Of a stretch of 64,000 bases of DNA, positions 1,710-53,343 are shown piece after piece. The position numbers were made by a program, and so were the translations under genes. Numbering within the stretch: position 1 is the stretch's first letter; each line of letters starts with the position of its first letter. A model generated the notes under the pieces. The model ran no database searches, was not told where the DNA came from, and saw only the letters and a list, made by a program, of their open reading frames with translations. The DNA lies in the NCBI GenBank assembly GCA_015062495.1, contig SUUN01000002.1, positions 71,905-135,904 of the forward strand, given 5' to 3'. This DNA comes from Alphaproteobacteria bacterium. GTDB taxonomy: Bacteria > Pseudomonadota > Alphaproteobacteria > Rs-D84.

Positions 1710-3128
1710 ATGAATATTCAATTTTCAGATTTAATCGAAAACGCACCACACGCCCCCGGCGTGTACAAGATGTATGACACAGAAAACAACCTGCTATATG
1801 TGGGCAAGGCTAAAAACCTGTCCAACCGCCTGCGTCAATATCTGGACATATCAAAACTGGAATTACACAAACAAGTCATGCGCACCTTGGTCGCACGTGT
1901 CGATTGGGAAACTGTCGCCACCGAATCAGACGCCCTGATTCGCGAACAAGAATTGATTAAAACACAAAAGCCAAAATATAACATCATGCTGACCGACGGG
2001 AAAATGTACCCAATGTTGGCGTTAACTTCGGGCGACTTTCCACGCCTGTTAAAATTCCGCGGCAAAATTTCCCAGCGTCGCGATGTCTATGGTCCATACC
2101 CATCTGTATCGGCACTAAATGAAACGATTAAAACGATTCAGCGCGTTTGCCAAATCCGCACATGCACCGACACACAAATGCATAATCGCACACGTCCATG
2201 CCTGTTACACCAAATTGGCCGATGCAGTGCCCCATGCACATACCCCGACAAACAAAAATACGCAGAAAACGTGCGTACAGCGCGAAAAATCCTGACCGGG
2301 GACAGCGAACCAATCATCACCGACCTGACCCAGCAAATGCGCGAATATTCCACAAACATGGATTTTGAAAACGCCGCAATTATTCGTGACAAAATTGCCG
2401 CACTAACCCATACAGCAAACCGTGGAAAGCGCCAAAACAATGCGCATAGCGCGATTTTAGATTGGGACAAAAATGTATCAGAATTGGAAAAATGGTTGAA
2501 CATAAAAATCAACCTGGCGGGTGTATTTGATAATTCACACCTGTTTGGCAAACAACCCGTTGGTGCCATGATAACATTCGGCCACAACGGCTTTGACAAG
2601 AACGGATACAGACACTTTAAATTACAGGACAAATCACGTGCCGGCAACGACATTGCGATGATGTCTGAATTTGTGCATCGCGCTGTTGAACGCGGTCCAA
2701 AACTGGATTTAATAATTGTTGACGGTGGCATGGCCCAGTGGAACATTGCTAACCGCGCATCGGATGACATACCGGTCTTTGGCGTGACCAAGGGCGTCGT
2801 CCGCGACGGCGACGAACACTTTATATTACCCGACGGCACGATATGTCGCGACCTGCCCAAGGACAGTCCGCTATTCCTTATGCTGCGCGCCGTCCGGGAC
2901 GAAGCGCACCGTTTCGTAATCACATATCACCGCAATGTCCGCGCAAAACAAATGACGGCATCGGTCTTGGATGAAATTGATGGCATTGGCCCGACGCGCA
3001 AACGCGCCCTGTTACAACATTTTGGATCAGTTCGTGCAATTATGGATGCCGACATTCGCGCATTGACACACGTCCCCGGTCTGGGAAAAAGTGCCGCTGA
3101 AAAAATATATGCCCATTTTCATCAATAA
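1710..3128 (+). CDS. uvrC: excinuclease ABC subunit C (compact, 472 aa)
   Basis: N-terminal GIY-YIG motif (GVYKMYD...LLYVGKAKNLSNRL). UvrBC-like region, RDEAHRF motif and C-terminal helix-hairpin-helix (GIGPTRKRALLQHFGS) are present. Shorter than canonical UvrC. Confidence 0.85.
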   Translation: MNIQFSDLIENAPHAPGVYKMYDTENNLLYVGKAKNLSNRLRQYLDISKLELHKQVMRTLVARVDWETVATESDALIREQELIKTQKPKYNIMLTDGKMYPMLALTSGDFPRLLKFRGKISQRRDVYGPYPSVSALNETIKTIQRVCQIRTCTDTQMHNRTRPCLLHQIGRCSAPCTYPDKQKYAENVRTARKILTGDSEPIITDLTQQMREYSTNMDFENAAIIRDKIAALTHTANRGKRQNNAHSAILDWDKNVSELEKWLNIKINLAGVFDNSHLFGKQPVGAMITFGHNGFDKNGYRHFKLQDKSRAGNDIAMMSEFVHRAVERGPKLDLIIVDGGMAQWNIANRASDDIPVFGVTKGVVRDGDEHFILPDGTICRDLPKDSPLFLMLRAVRDEAHRFVITYHRNVRAKQMTASVLDEIDGIGPTRKRALLQHFGSVRAIMDADIRALTHVPGLGKSAAEKIYAHFHQ

Positions 3129-3177
3129 GTGATATAATATACTTATTCATATATTTATTAACCAAAGGAGAAACTAT

Positions 3178-3789
3178 ATGAAATTTTTTGTTAACTTTCT
3201 GTCTGCATTCCGCATTGCCGCGGCATTTGCAATTATCCCGACATTAATGTTCCAAATGTATTGGACAACATTTATTCTGTATGTCCTGGCGGCTGCGTCC
3301 GATTGGTTTGACGGCTATCTGGCGCGCAAATACGATGTATGCAGCAAAATTGGCGGCGTCATGGATCACATTGGGGATAAATTACTGGTTATGAACACAC
3401 TGATTATGTTATCAGTCATGATGCCAGTATGGTTTGTTGTTGTCCCAGTAATTTTGATGATTGCACGCGAATTGTACATTTCTGGCCTGCGCGAATTTTT
3501 GGGCACCCAGAAAATAGAAATGCCAGTACCCAAGGCACGCTTTTCCATGGGCAAAATCAAGACCACCCTGCAAATGGTTTCAATCGCTGCATTTTTGTTA
3601 ATCTTTGCTGTTGGCACATTAATTACGCCTGAATCAGACAGTCGTACATTAATGTACCTGATTTACATCCTGCCCCAGGTTGGCATTTGGGGTCTGTGGC
3701 TGTCATTGGTTGCATCTATTTGGTCTGCAACACAATACACAGGTACATTCCTGGGCCACATGAAAACATTGGACAAGAAAAAGAAATAA
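3178..3789 (+). CDS. pgsA: CDP-diacylglycerol--glycerol-3-phosphate 3-phosphatidyltransferase (CDP-alcohol phosphatidyltransferase family)
   Basis: 203 aa polytopic membrane protein with the DWFDGYLARK...G...D...D CDP-OH transferase signature. Confidence 0.75.
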   Translation: MKFFVNFLSAFRIAAAFAIIPTLMFQMYWTTFILYVLAAASDWFDGYLARKYDVCSKIGGVMDHIGDKLLVMNTLIMLSVMMPVWFVVVPVILMIARELYISGLREFLGTQKIEMPVPKARFSMGKIKTTLQMVSIAAFLLIFAVGTLITPESDSRTLMYLIYILPQVGIWGLWLSLVASIWSATQYTGTFLGHMKTLDKKKK

Positions 3790-3792
3790 AAA

Positions 3793-3805
3793 CGCGCTAT
3801 ACGCA
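3793..3805 (+). repeat. 13-mer CGCGCTATACGCA, site 1 of 6 (plus orientation), 4 nt after the pgsA stop
   Basis: Exact 13-mer. Extended context is TAAAAACGCGCTATACGCACTAAATCCGGC. Confidence 0.6.
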
Positions 3806-3807
3806 CT

Positions 3808-3833
3808 AAATCCGGCATCCGCCGGATTTTTTA
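3808..3833. terminator. rho-independent terminator hairpin AAATCCGGCATCCGCCGGATTTTTT
   Basis: 6-bp GC-rich stem with a 4-nt loop and a T-tract. The identical 21-mer recurs at 40962-40987. Confidence 0.7.
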
Positions 3834-3887
3834 TTTACCCAGAAACACTTCGGTAAATAAAAGTTTAACGAAGTAAAAAATAAAAAC

Positions 3888-3978
3888 GTCATACCCGCGC
3901 AGGCGGGTATCTATTGCCCCGCAGGGACTGCATAAAAATGTCTGCGACGCAGTGGATTCCCGCCTTCGCGGGAATGAC
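3888..3978. repeat. pair of inverted 24-bp palindromic units flanking a 43-bp core
   Basis: Unit 1 is GTCATACCCGCGCAGGCGGGTATC (3888-3911). Unit 2 read on the reverse strand is GTCATTCCCGCGAAGGCGGGAATC (3955-3978). Each unit is itself a hairpin (CCCGC-N4-GCGGG). The A/T differences between units are compensatory within each stem. Confidence 0.5.
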
Positions 3979-4085
3979 GAGTCTTAATATTAATTGCTCT
4001 TTGCGCTTTGCTATTTGCTCTTTGTTTGCCCAACGGGCAAACTTAAATAAACTTTTATTTAACGTGGTATTCCTATCTCATATCT

Positions 4086-4120
4086 CAAAAAAATCCCGCG
4101 GTTGCGGGATTTTGTTTTTC
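4086..4120. terminator. bidirectional terminator AAAAAAATCCCGCGGTTGCGGGATTTTGTTTTT
   Basis: Hairpin with flanking A- and T-tracts, immediately downstream of the stop of the minus-strand gene ending at 4131. Confidence 0.6.
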
Positions 4121-4130
4121 CATCATCTGA

Positions 4131-4412
4131 TTATTGGATACCGACGCGGAACTGGTCGCCCCATTCGGCCACGTTTTGACCGCCAATGGTACATTTTATA
4201 TCTTCAAAACCATTTTCAACCTGGTTCTTTTTGACAACACTGCTGGTGATTAATCCGCCCGCAGTCCCCAATACAACCCCCGCAATACTGTCAGATGCCA
4301 AACGCGCGGTGTTAAATTTACCTTCTTCGTTTTTCCATACACTAACATCATCCCGGAATTTATTGTGTATCGATGTCAGTTGGCTGTACACACTGTTAAC
4401 CGTCTGGGTGGC
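4131..4412. repeat. ~280-bp inverted repeat (left copy), paired with 7219-7500
   Basis: Encodes the shared C-terminal 93 aa (ATQTVNSVYSQL...GDQFRVGIQ). The six-frame track shows identical antisense ORF products on both copies, implying nucleotide identity over at least 195 nt. Confidence 0.8.
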
Positions 4413-5609
4413 TGTAAACGTCGCAGACAAAACGCATTTTGTTTGCTCGTCATTAATTACCATGTTTGGATTGGTACATTTACATTCATTGTTTACCCAA
4501 TGCGCACCTGTGATTTTGTTGCATTCGACAATATCAGCCTTTAATTGACATTTTTTATTGCGCCATTCGTGTTGTGGGTTTTCGCATTTGCATTCGCCGT
4601 TATCCCAATATGCGCCGGTACTGGCGGCGGCCTCGCAATCACGTTTTAATTGCGCAGGATCGGTTAAAACACATCTGTCGCCATCGCGTTTATAGTTGCT
4701 GTCGGTGCAAACACATTCGCCATTATCCAGACGCAGATTCTTTGCCGCGTCACATTTACACCGGCCGCCCGACCATGTGCCACCTGATTTTACGCATTTG
4801 TTGCGAAGTGCCGCCGCGGCATTTTCGTTATTTATTGTCGCTTGAGATTTAACGCATTTCTTTTTGGTGGTATTAGGCTCGTATTTGGTTTCGCAAGAGT
4901 CTTTGATTAATGTTAAATCCCATCCGTTTGCTGCACATGTCACTGTACATTTTGCGTTGGTTTTAATGTATTCGGTGCTTTCTAATTTTCCAACAACAGA
5001 ACCAGAATTATTTGCCGCTATACAATCTTGTGAAAAGTTATAGCCGTTTGGGTGAGTTACTCCATCCTTGGTTTCACACTTGGGATTACGTGTGTCGGTC
5101 ACGCAATTGGTTTTATCCGCAGTGGGAACGAATCCAGTCTTACATTTATACATTACGCAACCATGATTGCCTGCGCCTAAGACAATACTGTCCCCTGTAG
5201 CACTTTGTATCGCGCCAGTTTTTGTGCCGTCAATTGCGAAAAATTTTTCCACATTTTGGGCCGTGCTACGTACTTCTGAATCCGAACATGTATCAGTTGG
5301 GTTGTGATTTGTCCATGTGTCATTATGACTGCCTGCATCAGAGCAATAAAAGAAACCATTTATACGATGGTTGAACGTATAATCTGGATGCTTGATGGCA
5401 ATTATTGTGCCTTCGCCACATTCGTAGTCATTGTCGCCCCAATTGCAACGATAGCACTGACCAGTTGCGTTATCTCCAACAACACCAGATGTTGATAGAA
5501 TGCTTTTATTGCTGCCACCACCGGGGCTGCATGTCGTAACCTTGCAATCTGCAAACGCATTTGTGCAAATAAGCGTTGAAAACACCACGAAAAATCCAAA
5601 TTTCTTCAT
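4131..5609 (-). CDS. secreted cysteine-rich protein with EGF-like CxC...C repeats and a conserved C-terminal glycine-zipper domain (family member A)
   Basis: 492 aa. Signal peptide MKKFGFFVVFSTLICTNAFA. About 50 Cys, with repeated C-x-C-x(5-12)-C modules (GGRCKCDAAKNLRLDNGECVCTD, GECKCENPQHEWRNKKC, NECKCTNPNMVINDEQTKC). The last 93 aa are identical to those of the 5791..7500 product. Confidence 0.8.
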   Translation of the reverse strand: MKKFGFFVVFSTLICTNAFADCKVTTCSPGGGSNKSILSTSGVVGDNATGQCYRCNWGDNDYECGEGTIIAIKHPDYTFNHRINGFFYCSDAGSHNDTWTNHNPTDTCSDSEVRSTAQNVEKFFAIDGTKTGAIQSATGDSIVLGAGNHGCVMYKCKTGFVPTADKTNCVTDTRNPKCETKDGVTHPNGYNFSQDCIAANNSGSVVGKLESTEYIKTNAKCTVTCAANGWDLTLIKDSCETKYEPNTTKKKCVKSQATINNENAAAALRNKCVKSGGTWSGGRCKCDAAKNLRLDNGECVCTDSNYKRDGDRCVLTDPAQLKRDCEAAASTGAYWDNGECKCENPQHEWRNKKCQLKADIVECNKITGAHWVNNECKCTNPNMVINDEQTKCVLSATFTATQTVNSVYSQLTSIHNKFRDDVSVWKNEEGKFNTARLASDSIAGVVLGTAGGLITSSVVKKNQVENGFEDIKCTIGGQNVAEWGDQFRVGIQ

Positions 5610-5631
5610 AAAAAATCTCCCTTGAAGCCTG

Positions 5632-5659
5632 CCTAATCCAAACGGTGGTTTGGATTAGG
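5632..5659. promoter_or_regulatory. perfect 28-bp palindrome CCTAATCCAAACGGTGGTTTGGATTAGG in the 5' leader of the minus-strand Cys-rich gene
   Basis: Sits 23 nt upstream of the ATG at 5609, just before the RBS AAGGGAGA. A 22-bp core recurs at 5744-5765 upstream of the divergent gene, in the same orientation relative to each gene. Confidence 0.55.
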
Positions 5660-5684
5660 CATATATTCGCGATTTAAAATATCC

Positions 5685-5713
5685 TTGGCACGTCCCGGAA
5701 AATATGATAAAAT
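5685..5713 (+). promoter_or_regulatory. candidate sigma70 promoter TTGGCA-17-TAAAAT for the 5791..7500 gene
   Basis: Spacing and hexamers fit consensus. The predicted start would put the downstream palindrome in the 5' UTR. Confidence 0.3.
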
Positions 5714-5743
5714 AACATGTATTAAGGATAGGAAAATTTGCTG

Positions 5744-5768
5744 AATCCAAACCACCGTTTGGATTAGG
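5744..5768. promoter_or_regulatory. second copy of the palindrome (AATCCAAACCACCGTTTGGATTAGG) in the 5' leader of the plus-strand Cys-rich gene
   Basis: Located 22 nt upstream of the ATG at 5791 and followed by CATATATAAGGGGAGA (RBS). Confidence 0.55.
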
Positions 5769-5790
5769 CATATATAAGGGGAGATAATCC

Positions 5791-7500
5791 ATGAAAAAAA
5801 TTGGTTTAATGATATTGTGCTGTATGATGATTGGCTCGACCGCATGGGGTAAGAGTGATTGCGAATATATCAAGGTTGGTACAGAAAAGTATGGATGTGA
5901 TACATCGGATTATAGTTCCAAGGAAATAGGCTATAACAGTGTTTATCAAGTGCTGGGGACGGGCTATTGCTATACTCAATCTAATACCAAAATGAGTGAT
6001 TTTACAAATAAAAAAGTAGCCTGTTACGACAAATCGGGCAGCGATGACTTGTGGACACGCGAACCCTTGAATCTTGATCCCAACAGTGTTATCAAAGATG
6101 TTAATAATTTGGTTGAGCATGCTGTATATGAAATTGCAAATTGCAAAGGTGATGGGGTGGCGGTTGCGCTGACCACTGAACAAATCCAGAATGGTGCTAA
6201 TGCAGTATGTTTTAACACCCCTGTAAAAATATCATGCCAACGGAATTATGCTTATGATGGCAATAAATGCATTCCGTTTGAGCAATGGGTGGGCGGATTT
6301 GACGATATTTGCAAGGAATCCAGTGTACAGCACGATGGCGTGGCGGATGAAAAAAAATTGAACACTGGAAATGATACGTATGTGTATTGCTATACAGAAC
6401 AGGAATTGCAAGGTATACGCGATAGGTTTTATTACGGTAATTCTTGCCTGGCAAATAAACATAAATTTAGACTTGGCAATAAATATTATAATTGCACGCC
6501 AAGCGGCTGGACCGAGCACACTTTTTCATGGTGTACAACTGGGAACGATTTCCAAAAATGTGATGGTATAGAACACTGTGTCACCGAATTATATGATAAC
6601 AGTACTCAAAAGGCAATAAAGGATGCCATCGGAACCGGTCAGTCAATGATATCTGATACAGGATCAACATATTGCCTGCGTAATGTTTGTGACAAAGGTT
6701 TTAGAAAGGTTGGCGACAAGTGTGTTGCAGAATCGGTTGTGCGTGATAATGAACAACGCGCCCGTAACGCCCAACAATCATGCGTATCAACGGGTGGTGT
6801 GTGGAAAGTAGGCACTTGTATGTGTGCGCCAGATAAAAATCTGGAACGTGATGGAAACACAAAATGTCGGTGCAAGGCAGGATATGAATACATCGATTCC
6901 AATAATAAGTCACAGGGCTGTAAAAAGATGAGTAAGACCATGATGAAAGAGGCCTGTGATGCCGCGTCCGATGCGTCATGGGATGTAAGTACAGAAACCT
7001 GTGTATGCAATATGGGTGATAACTATGTATTCAATTACGCCCAGAAAAAGTGCCTGCCGAACGATACGTATGCGGCATGTCAAAAATTGGTTGCGGCCGG
7101 GGATGCGCGTTGGGATGATACAGCCAAGGTATGTACATGTACTAAAAAGGGATTCGAATTTGACAGGGCGCAATGCGTTGAAACCGCCCAGGCAACCGCT
7201 GAACGGTTAACACGGGAAGCCACCCAGACGGTTAACAGTGTGTACAGTCAACTGACATCGATACACAATAAATTCCGGGATGATGTCAGTGTATGGAAAA
7301 ACGAAGAAGGTAAATTTAACACCGCGCGTTTGGCATCTGACAGTATTGCGGGTGTTGTATTGGGAACTGCGGGCGGATTAATCACCAGCAGTGTTGTCAA
7401 AAAGAACCAGGTTGAAAACGGTTTTGAAGATATAAAATGTACCATTGGCGGTCAAAACGTGGCCGAATGGGGCGACCAGTTCCGCGTCGGTATCCAATAA
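5791..7500 (+). CDS. secreted cysteine-rich protein with EGF-like repeats and a conserved C-terminal glycine-zipper domain (family member B)
   Basis: 569 aa. Signal peptide MKKIGLMILCCMMIGSTAWG. EGF-like modules (GTCMCAPDKNLERDGNTKCRCKAGYEY, ETCVCNMGDNYVFNYAQKKC, KVCTCTKKGFEFDRAQC). C-terminal 93 aa identical to the 4131..5609 product. Confidence 0.8.
   Translation: MKKIGLMILCCMMIGSTAWGKSDCEYIKVGTEKYGCDTSDYSSKEIGYNSVYQVLGTGYCYTQSNTKMSDFTNKKVACYDKSGSDDLWTREPLNLDPNSVIKDVNNLVEHAVYEIANCKGDGVAVALTTEQIQNGANAVCFNTPVKISCQRNYAYDGNKCIPFEQWVGGFDDICKESSVQHDGVADEKKLNTGNDTYVYCYTEQELQGIRDRFYYGNSCLANKHKFRLGNKYYNCTPSGWTEHTFSWCTTGNDFQKCDGIEHCVTELYDNSTQKAIKDAIGTGQSMISDTGSTYCLRNVCDKGFRKVGDKCVAESVVRDNEQRARNAQQSCVSTGGVWKVGTCMCAPDKNLERDGNTKCRCKAGYEYIDSNNKSQGCKKMSKTMMKEACDAASDASWDVSTETCVCNMGDNYVFNYAQKKCLPNDTYAACQKLVAAGDARWDDTAKVCTCTKKGFEFDRAQCVETAQATAERLTREATQTVNSVYSQLTSIHNKFRDDVSVWKNEEGKFNTARLASDSIAGVVLGTAGGLITSSVVKKNQVENGFEDIKCTIGGQNVAEWGDQFRVGIQ
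7219..7500. repeat. ~280-bp inverted repeat (right copy), paired with 4131-4412
   Basis: See the left-copy entry. Confidence 0.8.
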
Positions 7501-44953: not shown

Positions 44954-45574
44954 ATGGAAAAACAAGAAATAAGAACATTTGGTCGCCGTCACGGCAAAAA
45001 ATTATCCACCCGTCAACAAACACTGATTGACAACCTGTTGCCAACATTAAAACCGACAACGGGCGACATTTTGGAAATTGGATTTGGTGCGGGCGAACAT
45101 GTACGTGACCTGGCGCGCACAAATCCAGATAAAATTATTATTGGTGCCGAACCATTTATGAACGGGGTGGCGTCCCTGCTGTCCGCAATCACCGACGAAA
45201 AAACGAATCAGGTAATGGACGAATACGCCGGCATTCGCATCTGGGCGGATGATGTACGTGATTTTCTGCGCGAAACCGATTCGAAATTCGAACAAATTTG
45301 GGTTTTGCACCCCGACCCCTGGCCGAAAGCCCGACATGAAAAACGTCGCCTGCTATCGTCAGATTTTTTAAATCTGCTGTCAAAATATCTGACCGACAAT
45401 GGCGAAATTATTATCGGCACAGACCACTGGGAATATTTTGATTGGATATTGGAACAAATAAAAAACACACGCCTGACGGCAAACATCCCAGACATGGAAA
45501 TTATTCAAACGCGTTACCAACATAAAAACAAGGCGGGCACAGTCGCCCCAAAATATCTAATTCTTAAAAACTAA
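44954..45574 (+). CDS. trmB: tRNA (guanine46-N7)-methyltransferase TrmB
   Basis: SAM-methyltransferase fold (LEIGFGAGEH...) and HPDPWPKARHEKRRL. Start re-picked at MEKQEIRTF. Confidence 0.8.
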   Translation: MEKQEIRTFGRRHGKKLSTRQQTLIDNLLPTLKPTTGDILEIGFGAGEHVRDLARTNPDKIIIGAEPFMNGVASLLSAITDEKTNQVMDEYAGIRIWADDVRDFLRETDSKFEQIWVLHPDPWPKARHEKRRLLSSDFLNLLSKYLTDNGEIIIGTDHWEYFDWILEQIKNTRLTANIPDMEIIQTRYQHKNKAGTVAPKYLILKN

Positions 45575-46271
45575 CCCAAAAACGCAGTCCATCCATCAAC
45601 CCGGGCCGCACCTGTTGAACCAACCGCATTGCCTGCTCTATACGCATGAAATTCGGGCCAAATGCGAAATGCAAGTTAAATTTATTTTCCGTCCCCCATG
45701 CATTTAACATCCCGTACAACCGTCCAACAAAATCAGATTTATTCCCCGTATCATGCGCAAACGCAAATATCACAGACGACGCATTTATTTTGCGCAGATT
45801 TGCAAAAACATTTCCCCAGTCGAACGGCCCGATTTCACTGATATCCAATCCAATTGATAAATCCTTGTTAAAGAACAAATCATCCCGCACAAAATGCGTT
45901 TGTTCGACCAAGTCACCCAATCCACCCACATTCAAAAAAATCTGCGCACCATTTGCACCATGACGCAGACACGCATTAATCCGTACTGTAACATCTGAAA
46001 TCTGTTCTTCTGTGATTTTATCATTTTCCATATAGAACCGGGTCATAATCTTTACAGACGTTTTTTCCAACCACGGCCAAACAGTCTGAATCATATTTGG
46101 CGCAACTGAAACCTCTGACAAATTATGCGAATTTGCAAAATGCACAGCATCGGCCAAATCTGTGGCATCCATATCTGCCCCACACCACAGTGCCGCATTT
46201 TTACCAACCAAATCAAAAACAGCATTTTTATCAATCATAACACTTTTTACTTTATCACAAATATGATACAA
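45564..46271 (-). CDS. hypothetical protein
   Basis: 235 aa with no signal peptide and no confident motif. Divergent from the downstream four-gene operon. Confidence 0.45.
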   Translation of the reverse strand: MYHICDKVKSVMIDKNAVFDLVGKNAALWCGADMDATDLADAVHFANSHNLSEVSVAPNMIQTVWPWLEKTSVKIMTRFYMENDKITEEQISDVTVRINACLRHGANGAQIFLNVGGLGDLVEQTHFVRDDLFFNKDLSIGLDISEIGPFDWGNVFANLRKINASSVIFAFAHDTGNKSDFVGRLYGMLNAWGTENKFNLHFAFGPNFMRIEQAMRLVQQVRPGLMDGLRFWVSF

Positions 46272-46282
46272 TTAAAAATGTT

Positions 46283-47164
46283 ATGAAGGACAGACTGGAC
46301 AACTTTTTACTTGCAATTCTGTGGTTGTTGGCATCAACCCTGGGCGCATGCTTTTGGTTCAATATCCGATTCGGATTTAATATATTTTCGTCCCAACACT
46401 GGCATCACCTTGCCTATATGCAGGCCGCCCAAAACCCCGTCAGTCCAATGTTTTACATATCGACGGTTATAACAGTATTCGTTGTGATATTTGGTCTGTA
46501 TCTGATTATTCGTCCGCGTTTCAGACGATTTAAAATGCCAATACGTCAAACAACAATACCATCGCCACAACAACCCGCACAACCAATCCCCGCGAACGTC
46601 CCAACCCCCAGTGTCACGCCCGCACCCGCGCAGCCGCAAAACGCATCAACTATTCCCGAACAAATGTTGACACGTCCACCACGACTAAACATTGCGGTCA
46701 CACCACAATTATTCAGTGCCCCCCCACCGCAACAGGTTGCCACACCACAAAACGACTGGTCTGAAATACGCGACATATTTGAATCCGCTGGATATACATT
46801 CAAGGGCACGCCCCGTATTGGCACAATAACATCTGCACCCATTGCCATCGGCACAGGCGAAGTTTTATGGCTTGGCGCTATCGGTGTACCGACATCTGCC
46901 CTGGGCGCGGCCATTGATACACTTAACCAAATATTTTCAGATACACTGGATGACATAATAATAAACGTAAATGGCTTTGTTATTGATGCGCCCGACGCGG
47001 CCGCCCCAACCACCCCGGGCATACTAACATTTGACACACCCGCATCCCTGCGTCAATATATGTCTGAACATACAAACCCACCACTGGCCGAAGACGACAT
47101 CGAAAACTTTGATGCATTTTCCGCCTATATATCAACCGTAATTGATTACATTGGGAAAATTTGA
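46283..47164 (+). CDS. hypothetical Pro/Gln-rich membrane-anchored protein (operon gene 1)
   Basis: 293 aa. Two N-terminal transmembrane helices, a PQQPAQPIPANVPTPSVTPAPAQPQ low-complexity linker and a C-terminal globular region. Confidence 0.5.
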   Translation: MKDRLDNFLLAILWLLASTLGACFWFNIRFGFNIFSSQHWHHLAYMQAAQNPVSPMFYISTVITVFVVIFGLYLIIRPRFRRFKMPIRQTTIPSPQQPAQPIPANVPTPSVTPAPAQPQNASTIPEQMLTRPPRLNIAVTPQLFSAPPPQQVATPQNDWSEIRDIFESAGYTFKGTPRIGTITSAPIAIGTGEVLWLGAIGVPTSALGAAIDTLNQIFSDTLDDIIINVNGFVIDAPDAAAPTTPGILTFDTPASLRQYMSEHTNPPLAEDDIENFDAFSAYISTVIDYIGKI

Positions 47165-47667
47165 TGGAACTAAATGCCGGCACTGCCGAAAAATTAATAT
47201 CAGATATGGGCATGTCAGACCTGCCCCTGACCCAGGTTCATCCGACCCCCACCATTGTTGCGCCCGATTGGTTTTCGCGATACAAAAAATTGTGTCACGA
47301 ATTTATGGCATCATTAACAGATTCTGCCGAAACATTGGCGTTTATGAATTTGACCCAAGACGAATTTATGAACATAATTATGGGGCGCGACCTGCCCCAG
47401 AATATATCCATTCGGTTTCGCATACCGTTGGTATGGGGTGGCAAACTGGAAATTGATAATTTATTTATGTGTTGGACTTTTCCGCATTCCTACAACATGG
47501 ATCGATTTATTATTGCCCAGTCTGGCGCACAAACAATATGGATGCCGAACCCCGCAAAAAAGATTTATCTGCCTGCACACACGGCGGGTGGCGGTGACGG
47601 CGGCAACGCAACCGAAGACAGACTGGCCCAGATTGGCGCACAAATTGCGGCCGATCGTGATATGTAA
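47161..47667 (+). CDS. hypothetical protein (operon gene 2)
   Basis: 168 aa. ATGA overlap with gene 1. Confidence 0.45.
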   Translation: MMELNAGTAEKLISDMGMSDLPLTQVHPTPTIVAPDWFSRYKKLCHEFMASLTDSAETLAFMNLTQDEFMNIIMGRDLPQNISIRFRIPLVWGGKLEIDNLFMCWTFPHSYNMDRFIIAQSGAQTIWMPNPAKKIYLPAHTAGGGDGGNATEDRLAQIGAQIAADRDM

Positions 47668-47686
47668 AGCAAGACGGTGATAAAAA

Positions 47687-48121
47687 ATGACAACAGACGA
47701 ATTTTTATCATATATAAAATCGCGCGGGGCGCACCTGGCGGATGCCGTATCACCAAATCAAATTGCGCTGACAAACACTGCACTGCAACAACGTCGTCGC
47801 GCCATGTTGCCACAATATATGACCGAACTATATACCAAAACCGGTGGCATTATCTTGGGCAACGGTTATATATTTGGCCCAAAAGAAATCCCCCAGGGCC
47901 TGCGTTTTCCCGTCCCAACAATAACCAAAATTAACGAAGACGTATCCAACATTCCCCAAACCATCGGCAAAACTATATTTGGTCGCAACGATTTATTTTG
48001 GTTTGCATTTGATGCATTTGGTGTTTGCTATATGCTGGATAATTTAACACTTGCACCATTACGCAAATATGACGATCCACACCGCGCACTAATCGATTGT
48101 TTAATCGCAGGAAAAATATAA
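47687..48121 (+). CDS. hypothetical protein (operon gene 3)
   Basis: 144 aa, 20-nt gap after gene 2. Confidence 0.45.
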   Translation: MTTDEFLSYIKSRGAHLADAVSPNQIALTNTALQQRRRAMLPQYMTELYTKTGGIILGNGYIFGPKEIPQGLRFPVPTITKINEDVSNIPQTIGKTIFGRNDLFWFAFDAFGVCYMLDNLTLAPLRKYDDPHRALIDCLIAGKI

Positions 48122-48124
48122 ACA

Positions 48125-48343
48125 ATGAAAAAAATATCTGTATCCTTGTCCGGTCATCAAACCAGCATCACCCTGGAACGCGAATTTATTGACGCCCTGC
48201 ATGCATTGGCAGCACGCGCCGGCAAACCAATTGCACAAATAATAAATGAAATCGATTGCGCACGCGCACCCGACACCAACCTGTCGTCTGCGGTACGCGT
48301 ATGGGTACTAAATCAAATGATATTACGCATTGGTACGAATTAA
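48125..48343 (+). CDS. ribbon-helix-helix DNA-binding protein (PF13467/COG4321-like)
   Basis: 72 aa. KKISVSLSGHQTSITLEREFIDAL...IDCARAPDTNLSSAVRVWVL matches the RHH_4 family consensus (...SxxIxGHrTSisLE..Fw.aL...A...g.s...L...ID..R...NLSSAiRl.VL). Confidence 0.65.
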   Translation: MKKISVSLSGHQTSITLEREFIDALHALAARAGKPIAQIINEIDCARAPDTNLSSAVRVWVLNQMILRIGTN

Positions 48344-48367
48344 AAATCCGCCTATACGGCGGTTGTT

Positions 48368-51088
48368 TTATTCATTATCCGGGGGATATATCAAACAACT
48401 GGTATAATTATTATATCCAAATGCGCCTGATTGTGTACATTCTATTTTTGCCTTTTTACACATATTTGCACAACGCTTAAAACCAGGCGATTTATCTTCT
48501 GTACCAAAATCACATGTGGCATCAACATAGGTATTAAATTTCCCATCCTTGTTTTTCATAACCGTATAAACCTTAATATCTTCACGCCATGTTCCGTGCG
48601 CATCATTACACGCACTTCGTGCCTTGGACAAATATTCTGAATATTTTCCACGTGTTGCAGACTGATAAATCGTTCCTTCCACTGCAGTTTGATCAAACCA
48701 CCAATCCGATTCCAACGGTCGCCACACAGTTTGTCCAGACGCCACAGATTCTACATCTGTATCTGCGAAACAATCCAATTTCATTTCCACATTTGGACAT
48801 GGCAGAGTATTATTTTCGCATCCGCCACCACGCCGCCTTGATACAAGTACGTCAACCTGAATATTCGCTGGCTTTTGTTTTGCGACAAAATAACTTTCCA
48901 ATAATTTCTGTTTAGCAAAGGCTATGTCAAACTCTTTATCAAAATCCTTGTAATGTGGAGAAACTAATTCGACTTCAAATTTACATACGCGCCCTGTTAT
49001 TTGCGACCACATTTCATCAATCTTTGCCTTGGCTACAGATGTCAATCCGTTATCACTGAAAAAATCTGCTTCTGCAATAATAACCCCATCTTGGTTTGAT
49101 GTTACCGCACCGACATTATTTAACACATCCTTGATTGCCGTATTATCCGGTATTATTTGATTGGGATTCACCATCCCCTGCACCTGCGATTCTGCTGATT
49201 GCGATTGTATATTACCAACGACGTTTGACACAGACTCCTCAGAATCTGATTCTACAACAGGTTCTGTAACAGAATTTTTTAACACAATATTTGTATGTGC
49301 ATTTTCATAATCTTTCTTGTCATATTTATTTTTACCTGAATTAATCGCCAGGTTACCAATCAATGACCCTGCCGCTCCAACAACCGCAGTTATTGCTCCT
49401 GTTTTCTTTTTTTCCGCAGTCTCATCTTTTTGTTCTTGCCACATCTTGGCGTCCTGGCTATTTGGATCAGTCAACGCCCGCGCCAACGATGCATATGCAC
49501 CACCTGTTTTCCCAATCGCTACATCATCATACAATCCAGATGTTGCCGCATTCAAAATCGGTTCAGACTCAATCCCAGGTCGCATCCCCAATGCTTCTTT
49601 GCGCACCTTTAAATCATTTGCCAGCGCAACATATTCTGCATACAGTGCAATCAAGTCATTACCACCCGGCAATTCAACATCAACATCACCACCACGCACA
49701 TTTTTGCCATTACCATAACTGCATGTAAACGTGGCCAGATATGCCCGCATTGCATTTTCCGCATCTGCATACGCATCTTGTTCCGCCGCACCTGATGCCA
49801 ACATCATACCGCCAATCCCAGTTGCACCAATACCCGCTGCCCCCAACAGTTTATTTGCATCTGATTGTTCCCTGTCTTTGGCGGATTTTGCACTATCTTT
49901 TAATTTATCAATATTGTTTTGTGATTCTTGTTGCGCTTGTAAACTATTCACCTGCGGATTTTCACCCGGGACAGCAACCACGTCATCTACAGCTGTTTCG
50001 TCATCACTAACAACGGTTGTATCCTGAACATTCGTGGGCGATGTCACACCATCGTCCGTCGTACTGGCACTGTCCCCATCTTCAACTGGCGCGGCAACCA
50101 CAGCTGTATCGGTCACGGTTTCTTGTGTTGGTGTCGACGTATTTTCCGCATCAGACTGCGCGTTGTCCTCTGTCACTGGCGCAACACATGTCAGGTCTGT
50201 TTTTTCCCCATCTATAATAGTTAACTTATATTCTGCATCCATTTTTTTTACACTTTGACAATAACTGTCCGCGACACACCACCCCTGGGACACCCCCGCA
50301 GAACTCACAACCAGATACGTCCCCGCCTTGCACTTTGTAGCCACACATTTTAGCCCAGAATTATATTTTCCCGCTGTTGCGAATTGTGGCAAATCGTTTG
50401 CGGCACAATTATCACCCGGCCCAATTGTACGCACACAACTTCTTTTATCATCCGACGGTCTATAATTCTGTTTACACTCAGAAATCGAGTTGACCCACAC
50501 CATGCGGTTTGGATTTTCCTTGTATGTACATGTTTTTGTACACGAAGCCGCGTTGGAATCAGTTATCACATTTGGCGCACATTCTTGATTTTCCAAGACT
50601 GTCCCCTCAGGCGAATCGCCACATTTTCTTTCCTGACATTTACCATCTGCAAAAAATCTATTACCGTCACAACTAGCCATCAGACACCCTCTGGGCCACG
50701 CACCATCTTCAACAAAATTCCCACCTTGAACCCTGCATCTCTGCTCTGCCCCATCTTGGTACACACAATACCGCGCGCCACTAACACTTAATGTTGTTAT
50801 TTGACTTTTCTCACACCAATTTGTTTGCTGTTTTTGCCACTCATCCGGCCAACCTTTAACACATTTATAATTATCGCCATATAATGTTTGCAACTCTGCC
50901 CCATCCGCAAATGAAAAAGTTCCTTTTCTATACACCGGATTACATTCATAACTACTACCGTTATTCAAATAAAAGAATGATTTATCATCCGATGAACTAC
51001 TGGCTGCATTCACCTGTCGCCATGGTGCCGCATCACCATATGCAGCATCTAAAATCAGACAAAAAAACAACACAAACAAACAGCGCAT
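48368..51088 (-). CDS. large secreted cysteine-rich modular protein (Cys-rich N-domain, acidic T/D/V-rich linker, glycine-zipper segments, Cys-containing C-domain)
   Basis: About 906 aa from MRCLFVLFFCLILDAAYG (track start 51136 runs into the leader hairpin). About 45 Cys in the first 330 aa. Linker TDTAVVAAPVEDGDSASTTDDGVTSPTNVQDTTVVSDDETAVDDVVAV. Gly-zipper segments GAAGIGATGIGGMMLASGAA and GAITAVVGAAGSLIGNLAI. Shares a KFNT motif with the 4131/5791 C-terminal domain. Confidence 0.7.
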   Translation of the reverse strand: MRCLFVLFFCLILDAAYGDAAPWRQVNAASSSSDDKSFFYLNNGSSYECNPVYRKGTFSFADGAELQTLYGDNYKCVKGWPDEWQKQQTNWCEKSQITTLSVSGARYCVYQDGAEQRCRVQGGNFVEDGAWPRGCLMASCDGNRFFADGKCQERKCGDSPEGTVLENQECAPNVITDSNAASCTKTCTYKENPNRMVWVNSISECKQNYRPSDDKRSCVRTIGPGDNCAANDLPQFATAGKYNSGLKCVATKCKAGTYLVVSSAGVSQGWCVADSYCQSVKKMDAEYKLTIIDGEKTDLTCVAPVTEDNAQSDAENTSTPTQETVTDTAVVAAPVEDGDSASTTDDGVTSPTNVQDTTVVSDDETAVDDVVAVPGENPQVNSLQAQQESQNNIDKLKDSAKSAKDREQSDANKLLGAAGIGATGIGGMMLASGAAEQDAYADAENAMRAYLATFTCSYGNGKNVRGGDVDVELPGGNDLIALYAEYVALANDLKVRKEALGMRPGIESEPILNAATSGLYDDVAIGKTGGAYASLARALTDPNSQDAKMWQEQKDETAEKKKTGAITAVVGAAGSLIGNLAINSGKNKYDKKDYENAHTNIVLKNSVTEPVVESDSEESVSNVVGNIQSQSAESQVQGMVNPNQIIPDNTAIKDVLNNVGAVTSNQDGVIIAEADFFSDNGLTSVAKAKIDEMWSQITGRVCKFEVELVSPHYKDFDKEFDIAFAKQKLLESYFVAKQKPANIQVDVLVSRRRGGGCENNTLPCPNVEMKLDCFADTDVESVASGQTVWRPLESDWWFDQTAVEGTIYQSATRGKYSEYLSKARSACNDAHGTWREDIKVYTVMKNKDGKFNTYVDATCDFGTEDKSPGFKRCANMCKKAKIECTQSGAFGYNNYTSCLIYPPDNE

Positions 51089-51106
51089 TAATCCCCCCGT
51101 CAACAT

Positions 51107-51210
51107 CATAATAAAAAACCACTGAAAAAACATCAAGTGGTTGGAGGTTCGTTACAACTTTTCAGGAAATTGTTCGCTTTATTCAATATATTCAAGCGAC
51201 CTCCAACCCT
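51107..51210 (-). promoter_or_regulatory. conserved structured 5' leader element, copy 2
   Basis: In mRNA orientation the order is: GGGUUGGAGGUCG (51210-51198) pairing with CGAACCUCCAACC (51151-51139) around a ~46-nt loop, then hairpin CCACUUGAUGUUUUUUCAGUGG (51140-51119), then UUUUUUAUUAUG..., then RBS GGGGGGA and AUG at 51088. Stem and hairpin are conserved with copy 1; the loop sequence is different. Confidence 0.55.
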
Positions 51211-51348: not shown

Positions 51349-53343
51349 TTACCTGTATTTGCGCCTACAAAAACCAATCGACACAATTAAAATAATAATC
51401 ATCCATCCATTCAGTCCAATCACACGATACGGTGTAATATGTGCCCCCCATACAAATCCATCCAGCACCCCCGTCGCGCCAATCGGCAATGATGATATGA
51501 TTGCGCCATCCGCCCCAACAAACGCGCTAATGCCCGAATAATTTGCACGAATAATCGGCAACCCTGATTCAATTGCATATCGCCGCACCATATCCAGATG
51601 CTGATATGTGCCCGGCGTATTACCGAACCAATTATCATTTGTAATATTCACAATTGCATGCACATGCCCCGTATTCCCACCTGGCAACAAAGAATCTGAA
51701 AAAATAATTTCATAACAAATCGCAGGCGCAAAAACAAAATCCCCAACCGCAAGCAGTTCTGGTCCACGTCCCGGCATCAAATCAACCGGCGCAGGCAAAA
51801 ATCCCAACGGTCTATACTCGCCAAATGGCACCAGGTGTGACTTGCTATAAATCTTGTTAATATCACCACCGTCGTTCACAACAACCATAGAATTAGACAC
51901 CCCATTCCCGTCAAACGTATTTGTCCCCATAACAACGGGACGTCCAATTATTTTTACAAAATCAAATGTATCATTTGGCACAACAACAAACGGATATGTG
52001 GTTTCCGGGAACACAACCATATCATATACCCCAGGCTGCGTTGCCAAATTCATTAAATTATTCAAATTGGTTTCCGCACGCGCCAACGCTTCGGCCCGAC
52101 TGTGTGTTGCCTTTTGCAATTGGGAATTGGCAGGTTGCACAATACGAACCATTGGCCCTGTTGCATCCGCCCCAACATCTGAATATCGCATATTTTGCGC
52201 ACCAACAAACATTCCACATATGCCCAATAAAAGCATACCAATTAACACCGCCCAACATGCACGACATTTTCTGTCCCGCAAAACTTCAACCAACGCCGCT
52301 ATTACCCCCACAATAACAAACGTTAATCCCAACGCCCCCCACAACGCCATAGAATTTGCCAACATCGGCAATGGCATTGTTATATTTGCAACCGGATTCC
52401 ACGGAAATCCTGTAAACATCCATTCACGCGCCCACAGAACCAACGCCCAAACACAGGCAAACAAAATCGCACGCGCCCCACCCGATATACGCATACGCGC
52501 AATCGCAACGAACGGCCATGAAAATATCAGCGCACCCGCAATCGCCAATCCAACCACACCTGGAATTGTCCAAATTGCAAACTGTTGGGTTAATTCCGGC
52601 ACAACATAAATCGAATGCAGAACCCACCAAAAATTTGCCACGGCATACATCGCCCCAAATGGCGACACACGCAATAACGAACGCCAAAAGCCACCTATAT
52701 TTTCATTACGAACCGTCAACCAGTATGCGCCCATTATTCCAACAATCGTCCACCACCAATGGTAAAATGGTGCGAACCCAAAACTGGCAACCCCACCAAA
52801 CAGTGCGTACAGCGCATATTGCCAAAAACCATTTTCACGAATTTTTAATCGCCGAAAAAACGCAAGCACCCCACCACCTGGGCAGCAACTGGCATCATTA
52901 CACGAAACAGCGACATCATCCGCATATGGATTTTTTATCCCCATTTTTTTCAGCACCTTTATTTCCTTCATCTCCATCAGAATTGCTTCTTCATCTGTCA
53001 TATGATCGTACCCCAACAGATGAAACATACCATGCACAACCATATGCGCCACATGATCATGAAACGATATTTTTGCCTCTTTTGCTTCGCGCATTACTGT
53101 ATCAATGGAAATATAAATATCCCCCAGTAACACATCGTCCCCCAATTCAAACGACAGCACATTTGTCGCCCTGTCTACATTGCGATACGTTTTATTGATT
53201 TCATGAATTTCCGCATCATTGGTCAGTATAATCGACACTTCGGCATTTTTATATTTTGCCCCAACCACAATATTGGCGATTTTTTGAAAGTCAATTTTAT
53301 GACTATCCCAACGTTTATCATGTGCATCAATATATACTTTCAT
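51349..53343 (-). CDS. fusion ORF: endoribonuclease YbeY (N-terminal ~150 aa) joined in-frame to apolipoprotein N-acyltransferase Lnt (C-terminal ~500 aa)
   Basis: N-terminus has the YbeY motif HGMFHLLGYDH. After the linker VAVSCNDASCCPGGG comes a polytopic membrane domain and a nitrilase-like CN-hydrolase domain (ICYEIIFSD) typical of Lnt. No intervening stop codon. The usual ybeY-corC-lnt arrangement lacks corC here. Confidence 0.75.
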   Translation of the reverse strand: MKVYIDAHDKRWDSHKIDFQKIANIVVGAKYKNAEVSIILTNDAEIHEINKTYRNVDRATNVLSFELGDDVLLGDIYISIDTVMREAKEAKISFHDHVAHMVVHGMFHLLGYDHMTDEEAILMEMKEIKVLKKMGIKNPYADDVAVSCNDASCCPGGGVLAFFRRLKIRENGFWQYALYALFGGVASFGFAPFYHWWWTIVGIMGAYWLTVRNENIGGFWRSLLRVSPFGAMYAVANFWWVLHSIYVVPELTQQFAIWTIPGVVGLAIAGALIFSWPFVAIARMRISGGARAILFACVWALVLWAREWMFTGFPWNPVANITMPLPMLANSMALWGALGLTFVIVGVIAALVEVLRDRKCRACWAVLIGMLLLGICGMFVGAQNMRYSDVGADATGPMVRIVQPANSQLQKATHSRAEALARAETNLNNLMNLATQPGVYDMVVFPETTYPFVVVPNDTFDFVKIIGRPVVMGTNTFDGNGVSNSMVVVNDGGDINKIYSKSHLVPFGEYRPLGFLPAPVDLMPGRGPELLAVGDFVFAPAICYEIIFSDSLLPGGNTGHVHAIVNITNDNWFGNTPGTYQHLDMVRRYAIESGLPIIRANYSGISAFVGADGAIISSLPIGATGVLDGFVWGAHITPYRVIGLNGWMIIILIVSIGFCRRKYR

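Follow-up and report, generated by a model that had tools for sequence, protein, structure and literature searches.

What kind of system is encoded by four small, tightly packed genes that carry no informative names? The question is raised by positions 46283 to 48343 of a 64,000-nucleotide stretch of contig SUUN01000002.1 (GenBank: GCA_015062495.1; contig positions 71,905 to 135,904), which comes from a gut bacterium of the Alphaproteobacteria, order Rs-D84, belonging to the candidate genus Enterousia; the whole stretch is called the window below. A first-pass annotation had listed four plus-strand open reading frames (ORFs) in this interval, all of which are present, and had described them as an operon of unknowns that might be an export/maturation module or a toxin-immunity-like module. 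We find that genes 2 and 3 descend from a toxin-immunity pair whose toxin has lost its catalytic residues. We consider it probable that the four-gene locus is a vertically inherited, co-transcribed operon in which such a pair, a HNH-DNase domain of the YhhZ/Hcp-ET1 type together with YrhA, has been domesticated as a core operon.

Gene 2 (47164..47667, plus strand) codes for 167 amino acids (aa) and, judged by profile comparison, is a diverged homologue of the YhhZ-type HNH toxin domain that is predicted to be catalytically dead. The earlier description of genes 2 and 3 as motif-less stands for direct Pfam searches and falls for remote homology, which assigns the one to an HNH toxin domain and the other to YrhA/SUKH. 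Neither Pfam nor NCBIfam models matched gene 2 above threshold, the HNH model was found in none of 27 gene 2 family members, and phmmer and profile searches of PDB sequences gave no meaningful match for genes 2 and 3. By eye, the gene 2 segment RFRIPLVWGG.....DNL resembles the HNH signature. The AlphaFold2 model (pLDDT 86.8, pTM 0.80) has a β-hairpin and a helix at residues 81-117; this putative ββα, His-Me-finger-like core, SIRFRIPLVWGGKLEIDNLFMCWTFPHSYNMDRFII (47407..47514, plus strand), is built in the model from strands at residues 81-85 and 100-104 and a helix at residues 105-117, and hhalign aligns it with VHHKIPLDDGG..DNL..PYH. A Foldseek search of the model against the PDB was not significant.

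The ancestry of gene 2 was traced through intermediates. An exhaustive search of 1.8 billion protein representatives with the gene 2 profile returned only 76 relatives (E down to 3e-8), among them proteins of 320-420 aa which carry the gene 2 domain at their C-terminus and are encoded next to a VirD4 gene. Used as a query, the domain of the VirD4-linked relatives (P0425) finds genes annotated as HNH endonucleases on 459 plasmids, with E as low as 3e-8. Among their products, the Kosakonia and IncHI2 proteins exceed the Pfam HNH gathering score and have the motif VHHKIPLDDGG..DNL..PYH. YhhZ of E. coli, in which an Hcp domain is combined with an HNH domain, belongs to the same family (211 bits) and is also found with the profile of the VirD4-linked group (67 bits). 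Aligning the gene 2 family directly with four gamma- and betaproteobacterial HNH proteins in hhalign gave P = 2e-4 over 86 columns, with RFRIPLVWGG of gene 2 paired with VHHKIPLDDGG. Together, the intermediates and the direct alignment show, at the level of sequence profiles, that gene 2 is homologous to the YhhZ-type HNH toxin domain (PF01844 group). Other candidate families were set aside: the Tox-REHH proteins of a preprint (10.64898/2026.09.22.753552) form a different family, and the weak single matches to Tdi1_C, DUF2649, NERD and RAP were not used.

N99, the structural Asn, and G92-G93 are all that gene 2 keeps of the HNH core. HNH enzymes with an 'HH' pair, such as the colicin DNases and Cas9, use the first of the two His to bind the metal and the second, which ends the first β-strand, as the general base. 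In the gene 2 protein of the window the metal-ligand His site is R84, the general-base site is F85 and the helix His site is S109. We counted the residues at these positions in 116 proteins of the Enterousia type (Candidatus Enterousia and its kin in the order Rs-D84) and in 42 more distant relatives from the Alphaproteobacteria. His does not occur at the general-base position in either set, and the residue there is F, L or M in all 116 Enterousia-type proteins. The metal-ligand positions hold R84 in 116 out of 116 and S or A at position 109 in 116 out of 116. In about 60% of the distant relatives, the two histidines that bind the metal are still present (25 and 22 of the 42, respectively). 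There is no invariant His anywhere in the gene 2 family, and gene 2 is probably nuclease-dead. The protein consists of the toxin-derived domain alone and has no signal peptide, hydrophobic segment or N-terminal delivery domain. Its C-terminal motif GGGDGGNATEDRL (47587..47625, plus strand; superfamily consensus GGxxxxDR), a low-confidence loop followed by a helix in the model, is found in the alphaproteobacterial relatives and is absent from the enterobacterial toxins.

Gene 3 (47687..48121, plus strand, 144 aa) is assigned to the YrhA family/SUKH-1, an immunity-protein lineage, as a diverged member. The gene 3 protein itself matches the NCBIfam YrhA model (NCBIfam: NF038335) with E = 0.0039 and 17.1 bits, which does not pass the cut-off of 55, and six out of 27 gene 3 family members match SMI1_KNR4 / SUKH-1 (Pfam: PF09346) below threshold. 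In hhalign the gene 3 family matches the VirD4-linked group of gene 3-like proteins at 96.7% (3e-10), and this group matches the gamma- and betaproteobacterial YrhA proteins at 91.9% (7e-7). The gene 3-like proteins encoded beside distant gene 2 relatives score 68.5, 72.9, 38 and 35 bits with the YrhA model (cut-off 55), those passing being from loci L085 and L093. Transitive profile-profile homology thus places gene 3 among diverged YrhA/SUKH proteins. The position of the gene agrees with that of YrhA genes, since it is encoded immediately downstream of a gene with an HNH domain; a 'YrhA family protein' gene lies directly 3' of the HNH gene in E. coli K-12 and in each of the four plasmid loci used for reference. 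SUKH proteins are classic immunity partners of nuclease toxins (PMC3113570), and HNH-DNase effectors of the Hcp-ET1 type with downstream immunity genes have been described in Enterobacteriaceae (PMC6099711).

The charges of the two proteins are reversed compared to the YhhZ/YrhA pair. The C-terminal domain of YhhZ has an isoelectric point (pI) of 9.7 and YrhA proteins have values of 4.2-4.6, and the VirD4-linked relatives show the same polarity with 7.1-9.3 for the toxin-like and 4.6-5.0 for the YrhA-like proteins. Gene 2 has a pI of 5.1 (family median 5.3), and gene 3 has a pI of 8.6 in the window (family median 7.8). As the swap preserves the complementarity of the charges, it fits a retained interaction between the two proteins and makes it less likely that gene 2 binds DNA.

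The operon is conserved throughout the relatives. One genome per species was scanned, and the gene-order statistics are based on the 80 best loci. Homologues were found for gene 1 (380), gene 2 (447) and gene 3 (751), all of them unnamed proteins from alphaproteobacterial metagenome-assembled genomes (MAGs) and often with consecutive locus tags; in the scan, a gene 3 relative is present in at least 223 species genomes. All four genes are colinear in 79 out of 80 species loci, the sole exception ending at a contig end, and the median gaps are -1, about 16 and 3 nucleotides (nt). The median identity to the window is 46% for gene 1, 67% for gene 2, 62.5% for gene 3 and 69% for gene 4, compared to 80% for gltX and 64% for ybeY-lnt. 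In seven relatives the nonsynonymous divergence (dN) of gene 2 is 0.044-0.148, next to 0.047-0.187 for gltX and 0.043-0.103 for trmB, and the ratio dN/dS to the synonymous divergence (dS) is about 0.04-0.2, a ratio that is approximate because dS is near or above 1. The numbers of homologues, the colinearity and dN/dS establish that the four ORFs are real genes and not chance ORFs. No gene 2 match was found on plasmids or phages and no gene 3 match on viral contigs, and direct scans of genes 1-3 with Pfam, NCBIfam, PADLOC and PHROGs brought up no match above the cut-offs.

Gene-neighbourhood conservation, which the first-pass annotation had named as a check on its operon, is borne out both by this colinearity and outside the common chromosomal context. 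Locus L088 has all four genes in this order, placed between accA/D and asmA/uvrB, and because the operon recurs in this different setting we regard it as a genuinely linked unit. In L087 the operon genes follow a Peptidase_M23 gene, and L098-L100 hold additional trios of gene 1-like, gene 2-like and gene 3-like genes. Gene 1 homologues are located 5' of the gene 2-like genes in L087, L088, L098 and L100.

Gene 1 (46283..47164, plus strand, 293 aa) had been described as a membrane-anchored protein with a long Pro/Gln-rich linker, and this description holds: the ORF codes for a module of two transmembrane (TM) segments, a Pro/Gln linker and a C-terminal globular domain. TM1 (residues 8-27, 46304..46363, plus strand) was identified from Kyte-Doolittle 19-residue windows above 1.6 and is conserved in the family alignment. 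A conserved loop of 28 residues separates it from TM2 (residues 56-76, 46448..46510, plus strand), also identified by hydropathy, which is followed by RPRFRRFK with six K/R and no D/E. By the positive-inside rule this charge predicts that the linker and the C-terminal domain are cytoplasmic, so that gene 1 would be an inner-membrane protein with its soluble part at the cytoplasmic side. The linker (46511..46753, plus strand) is variable in the alignment and consists of 81 residues, 38% of which are P or Q. Within it, the motif RPPRLN (46673..46690, plus strand) is conserved, with R131 invariant and P132, R134 and L135 kept in at least 90% of the sequences. It resembles the 'RPPA/L.R' motif seen in gene 1-like proteins of the VirD4-linked loci, and may serve as a docking site.

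The C-terminal domain of gene 1 (residues 158-293, 46754..47161, plus strand) is conserved, comprises about 136 aa with a pI of 4.05, and has the αβββαβ core of the restriction-endonuclease-like (PD-(D/E)xK) fold. The catalytic D...(D/E)xK motif is not conserved in the family alignments: β2 lacks the Asp, β3 lacks (D/E)xK (IAIG / VLWLGAI), and the invariant acidic residues are found elsewhere. The NERD domain (Pfam: PF08378) matched only one out of 16 superfamily members, with E = 0.016, and we do not assign gene 1 to it.

Gene 4 (48125..48343, plus strand, 72 aa) is a ribbon-helix-helix protein of the RHH_4 family (Pfam: PF13467), as the first-pass annotation had recognised. The match has an E-value of 5.7e-20 and 71.6 bits (cut-off 25), and residues 2-64 cover positions 2-66 of the 67 in the model. 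The protein is basic, with a pI of 9.2. An RHH_4 gene is also located 3' of the gene 3 homologues in L087 and L088, and is missing from the VirD4-type and L090-type loci. RHH_4 genes keep a conserved place convergent with asmA: in Sinorhizobium meliloti (L101, locus 2645-7180) the order is sspB, DUF4169, RHH_4, asmA, and in L088 (6994-10102) asmA is convergent to RHH_4. These gene orders mark RHH_4 as an old alphaproteobacterial gene to which the trio of genes 1-3 was joined. Our literature search for the function of RHH_4, COG4321 or DUF4169 found none.

The VirD4-linked relatives have a gene order of their own. All five examined loci of this kind, from other Alphaproteobacteria MAGs (L084, L085, L092, L093 and L094), share one order of one or two genes for gene 1-like proteins, VirD4/TraG, a fusion in which 'MWDWS' and a P/Q linker precede the gene 2 domain, and a YrhA-like gene. 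The gene 1-like proteins have the same TM segments, 'RPPA/L.R' linker and restriction-endonuclease-like architecture, and the HNH-like proteins of the MWDWS type keep the metal-ligand His and have Leu at the general-base position. No description of such clusters was found in the literature searched. The clusters also hold an unknown protein of about 310 aa, and virB genes are not adjacent.

Put together as a mechanism, gene 2 descends from the C-terminal HNH-DNase domain of a YhhZ or Hcp-ET1-type protein, and gene 3 from the YrhA (SUKH) protein that goes with it. Within Enterousia/Rs-D84, the three catalytic His of gene 2 have been lost and the protein has turned acidic, and gene 3 has turned neutral to basic. 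The gene 2 protein most likely neither cuts nor binds DNA, and would still be tightly complexed with gene 3 with the charges swapped. Gene 1 probably tethers this complex at the membrane or is its partner there. Gene 4, the sole protein of DNA-binding character, is most likely the transcriptional regulator of the unit or its output. As for the present function, we infer that the module most likely acts without enzymatic activity, in a structural or regulatory capacity, on the cytoplasmic side of the inner membrane. A broader version is tentative: a disarmed toxin, its immunity protein and a membrane pseudo-nuclease might have been co-opted as an indispensable order-wide complex, originating from an undescribed VirD4-coupled module.

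Several points weigh against the domestication of a toxin-immunity pair as an operon. Neither gene 2 nor gene 3 of the window alone reaches the threshold of any curated family. Aligning the gene 3 family directly with four YrhA proteins in hhalign was negative, and because this direct comparison fails, the membership of gene 3 in the YrhA family depends on the VirD4-linked intermediates. The synteny of the clade covers gltX, trmB, the divergent 235-aa gene upstream of gene 1, genes 1-4 and ybeY-lnt; since the entire neighbourhood is syntenic, synteny in Enterousia alone cannot prove functional linkage, and the proof depends on a few distant loci. The tie between gene 4 and the trio may be partly positional, because RHH_4 has its ancestral place by asmA. 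Moreover, divergent HNH nucleases and toxins can relocate their catalytic residues (10.64898/2026.09.22.753552), which is why we only infer that gene 2 is nuclease-dead.

The same possibility is a starting point for reading the locus as an active toxin-immunity or toxin-antitoxin (TA)-like addiction module, in which gene 2 would be toxic in a non-canonical way, gene 3 would neutralise it, gene 4 would repress its own operon and loss of the module would kill the cell. The pair does descend from a toxin and an immunity protein in the canonical order of toxin then immunity, its active site could be hidden or relocated as in other divergent HNH toxins, and RHH proteins such as RHH_4 of gene 4 are typical TA regulators. 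However, gene 2 has no invariant His and all three catalytic positions are replaced, it is acidic, unlike nuclease toxins, and it has no trafficking domain. The operon is a single conserved copy at one locus in 79 of the 80 species, with dN at the level of housekeeping genes and without polymorphism; plasmid and phage matches for gene 2 and viral-contig matches for gene 3 are lacking; and RHH_4 is not a typical antitoxin, being widespread in Alphaproteobacteria in a gene order of its own. We judge an addiction module unlikely. The suggestion of a toxin-immunity-like module in the first-pass annotation was therefore right about descent, with a YhhZ-type HNH protein in gene 2 and a YrhA/SUKH protein in gene 3. 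The locus does not look like an active conflict system: the catalytic His are gone, the charges are inverted, the genes are fixed and constrained, and neither plasmid or phage matches (gene 2) nor viral matches (gene 3) were found.

A second alternative takes the operon as an accessory or substrate-recruitment module of VirD4, with gene 1 as a partner of the coupling protein and genes 2 and 3 as an adaptor or an effector-chaperone pair. It draws on the order of gene 1-like gene, VirD4, P/Q-linker-gene 2 fusion and YrhA-like gene in five out of five relatives that still bear the His. It is also in line with the plasmids: on the IncHI2 plasmid pYQ13422-1 (L097, 4923-6500) the HNH-YrhA pair is situated in the Tra2 region beside TraG-N and TrhH, and 434 of the 459 plasmids with such a pair are typed as conjugative. 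Nevertheless, a tblastn search with VirD4 of L085 found no VirD4 gene, either across the 64-kb window or, for the 80 Enterousia-type loci, in the roughly 8 kb around the operon, and the Enterousia-type proteins have diverged from the VirD4-linked type in charge and active-site residues. Enterousia-type gut genomes are small (about 0.75-1.0 Mb, roughly 900 genes), and the published description of the genomes of about 0.9 Mb mentions no secretion systems (PMC12306168). A present role beside VirD4 is improbable in our view.

That the operon exports or matures the Cys-rich secreted protein next to it is hardly credible: the Cys-rich gene is adjacent and convergent in the window and gene 1 is a membrane protein, but the Cys-rich gene (48368..51136, minus strand, 922 aa) is absent in L002 despite flanks of 96-100% identity, is reduced to 607 aa in L003 and is detectable in only nine of the 80 species although the operon is always present, the predicted location of the soluble gene 1 domain is the cytoplasm, signal peptides and hydrophobic segments are lacking in genes 2-4, and no fold related to export was found.

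If domestication of the pair is the correct reading, the operon would be a bacterial case of a conflict system turned into a core cellular component. Toxin-immunity cassettes are normally fast-evolving, mobile and dispensable. This operon is instead fixed and slow-evolving, and it has been kept in genomes of about 900 genes after the loss of catalysis and the inversion of charge. Confirmation would make it a clear prokaryotic case of a weapon turned into a housekeeping or regulatory complex, and would explain where four 'hypothetical' genes, universal in the gut lineage Rs-D84/Enterousia, come from. An undescribed VirD4-associated family would be indicated as well, with possible relevance to the recruitment of partners by type IV coupling proteins.

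The layout of the operon is slightly tighter than annotated. The lengths of 293, 144 and 72 aa for genes 1, 3 and 4 were correct, and gene 2 has 167 aa in place of 168. An alternative upstream start of gene 2 is at 47161 and the ATG start at 47164. Since the homologues all start with MQLN or MELN and independent gene callers choose the same ATG, the start is almost certainly at 47164, and the stop of gene 1 and the start of gene 2 therefore overlap as TGATG, by -1 nt and not -4. Such an overlap suggests translational coupling. Between genes 2 and 3 the gap is 19 nt, with GGTGA inside, and between genes 3 and 4 it is 3 nt, with AGGAAA ahead of it; 20 and 4 nt had been given.

After the stop of gene 4 comes a bidirectional hairpin resembling an intrinsic terminator (48348..48362, both strands), CCGCC-tatac-GGCGG with T-runs on either side, which ends both the operon and the convergent gene. 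No plus-strand terminator-like sites were found inside 46283-48343 and no Rfam families in 45000-49000. Upstream of gene 1, the search for a conserved operator found only AT-rich, promoter-like conservation overlapping the coding sequence of the neighbour and nothing usable, and a sigma-70 scan stayed at background level, with 9 sites found against 8.5 expected.

The operon had been placed between trmB and the Cys-rich gene. The convergent Cys-rich gene is indeed adjacent; trmB is not the immediate neighbour on the other side, where a 235-aa gene in head-to-head orientation with gene 1 intervenes (45564..46271, minus strand; TTG start, with 224 aa if the ATG at 46238 is used). This gene adjoins gene 1 in 71 loci, the median gap being 11 nt, and because the gap is only 11 nt, the promoters of the two genes must lie inside each other's gene. 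In L087 it is also next to the operon, and in L088 about 3 kb separate the two. Pfam, NCBIfam and PDB sequences gave no match for it, and it is a doubtful member of the system. The idea, formed by eye, that it is DeoC-like was not supported by the Pfam, NCBIfam and PDB searches and was dropped.

On the downstream side, the presence and absence pattern of the Cys-rich gene effectively refutes its proposed link to the operon, and we have rejected this link; the gene fills a variable slot and is outside the operon system. Insertions seem to be frequent in this slot, which extends from gene 4 to ybeY-lnt and has the look of a hot spot: the gap exceeds 500 nt in eight out of 67 loci, with a median of 65 nt. 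The next ORF (51349..53343, minus strand, 664 aa) fuses YbeY, an RNase of rRNA maturation (residues ~11-137), to the apolipoprotein N-acyltransferase Lnt (residues ~229-614). This fusion is conserved in 67 related loci and also occurs in L087 (596 aa). Furthermore, L001 and L003 have a small ORF with a GIY-YIG domain upstream of the HlyIII gene (4461-4769 in L001) that the near-identical L002 lacks, a pattern which suggests a second small strain-variable insertion near the locus.

Among known systems, the YhhZ-YrhA pair of E. coli and the Hcp-ET1/ETi1 pairs of type VI secretion systems are comparable to genes 2 and 3 in the order of toxin then immunity, the tight spacing, the GG and the structural Asn, these two within a putative ββα core. 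Cassettes of the YhhZ/YrhA type are also found on IncHI2, Pantoea, Kosakonia and Polaromonas plasmids. In contrast to YhhZ-YrhA, gene 2 has no Hcp or other delivery domain, its three catalytic His are replaced and the charges of the pair are reversed. The operon is also fixed and neither polymorphic nor mobile, and it adds a membrane protein with a restriction-endonuclease-like fold, RHH_4 and the GGxxxxDR tail. Polymorphic toxins are recognised by strain variability and a patchy, mobile distribution, and the operon shows neither, with 79 of 80 loci colinear and a low dN.

The VirD4-linked clusters have three core proteins homologous to those of the operon, with the architecture of gene 1 and the RPP motif common to both, and like the operon they have no general-base His. 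They differ in the presence of the coupling protein of a type IV secretion system (T4SS), in the absence of RHH_4, in the fusion of the gene 2 domain to a P/Q-rich N-terminal extension and in having kept the polarity of basic toxin and acidic immunity protein. Classical polymorphic toxins do not appear to use T4SSs, according to a survey of 2012 (PMC3482391).

Type II TA operons are likewise small and tightly packed and include an RHH gene. In the operon, however, this gene is the last and not the first, RHH_4 has a synteny of its own (sspB-DUF4169-RHH_4-asmA), and the locus is not mobile or patchy. The nucleases of the PD-(D/E)xK and NERD type, such as NucS, the cleavage domain of FokI, Can2 and AF1548, differ from the gene 1 domain, which has no conserved D...(D/E)xK, has a pI of 4.05 and is tethered to the membrane by two TM segments and a long disordered linker. 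Finally, an inactive HNH-type toxin domain has been reused in animals, where it forms the C-terminal Tox-GHH domain of teneurins (PMC3482391). The teneurin domain is eukaryotic, extracellular and without an immunity partner, and is thus a conceptual parallel to gene 2 and not a close relative.

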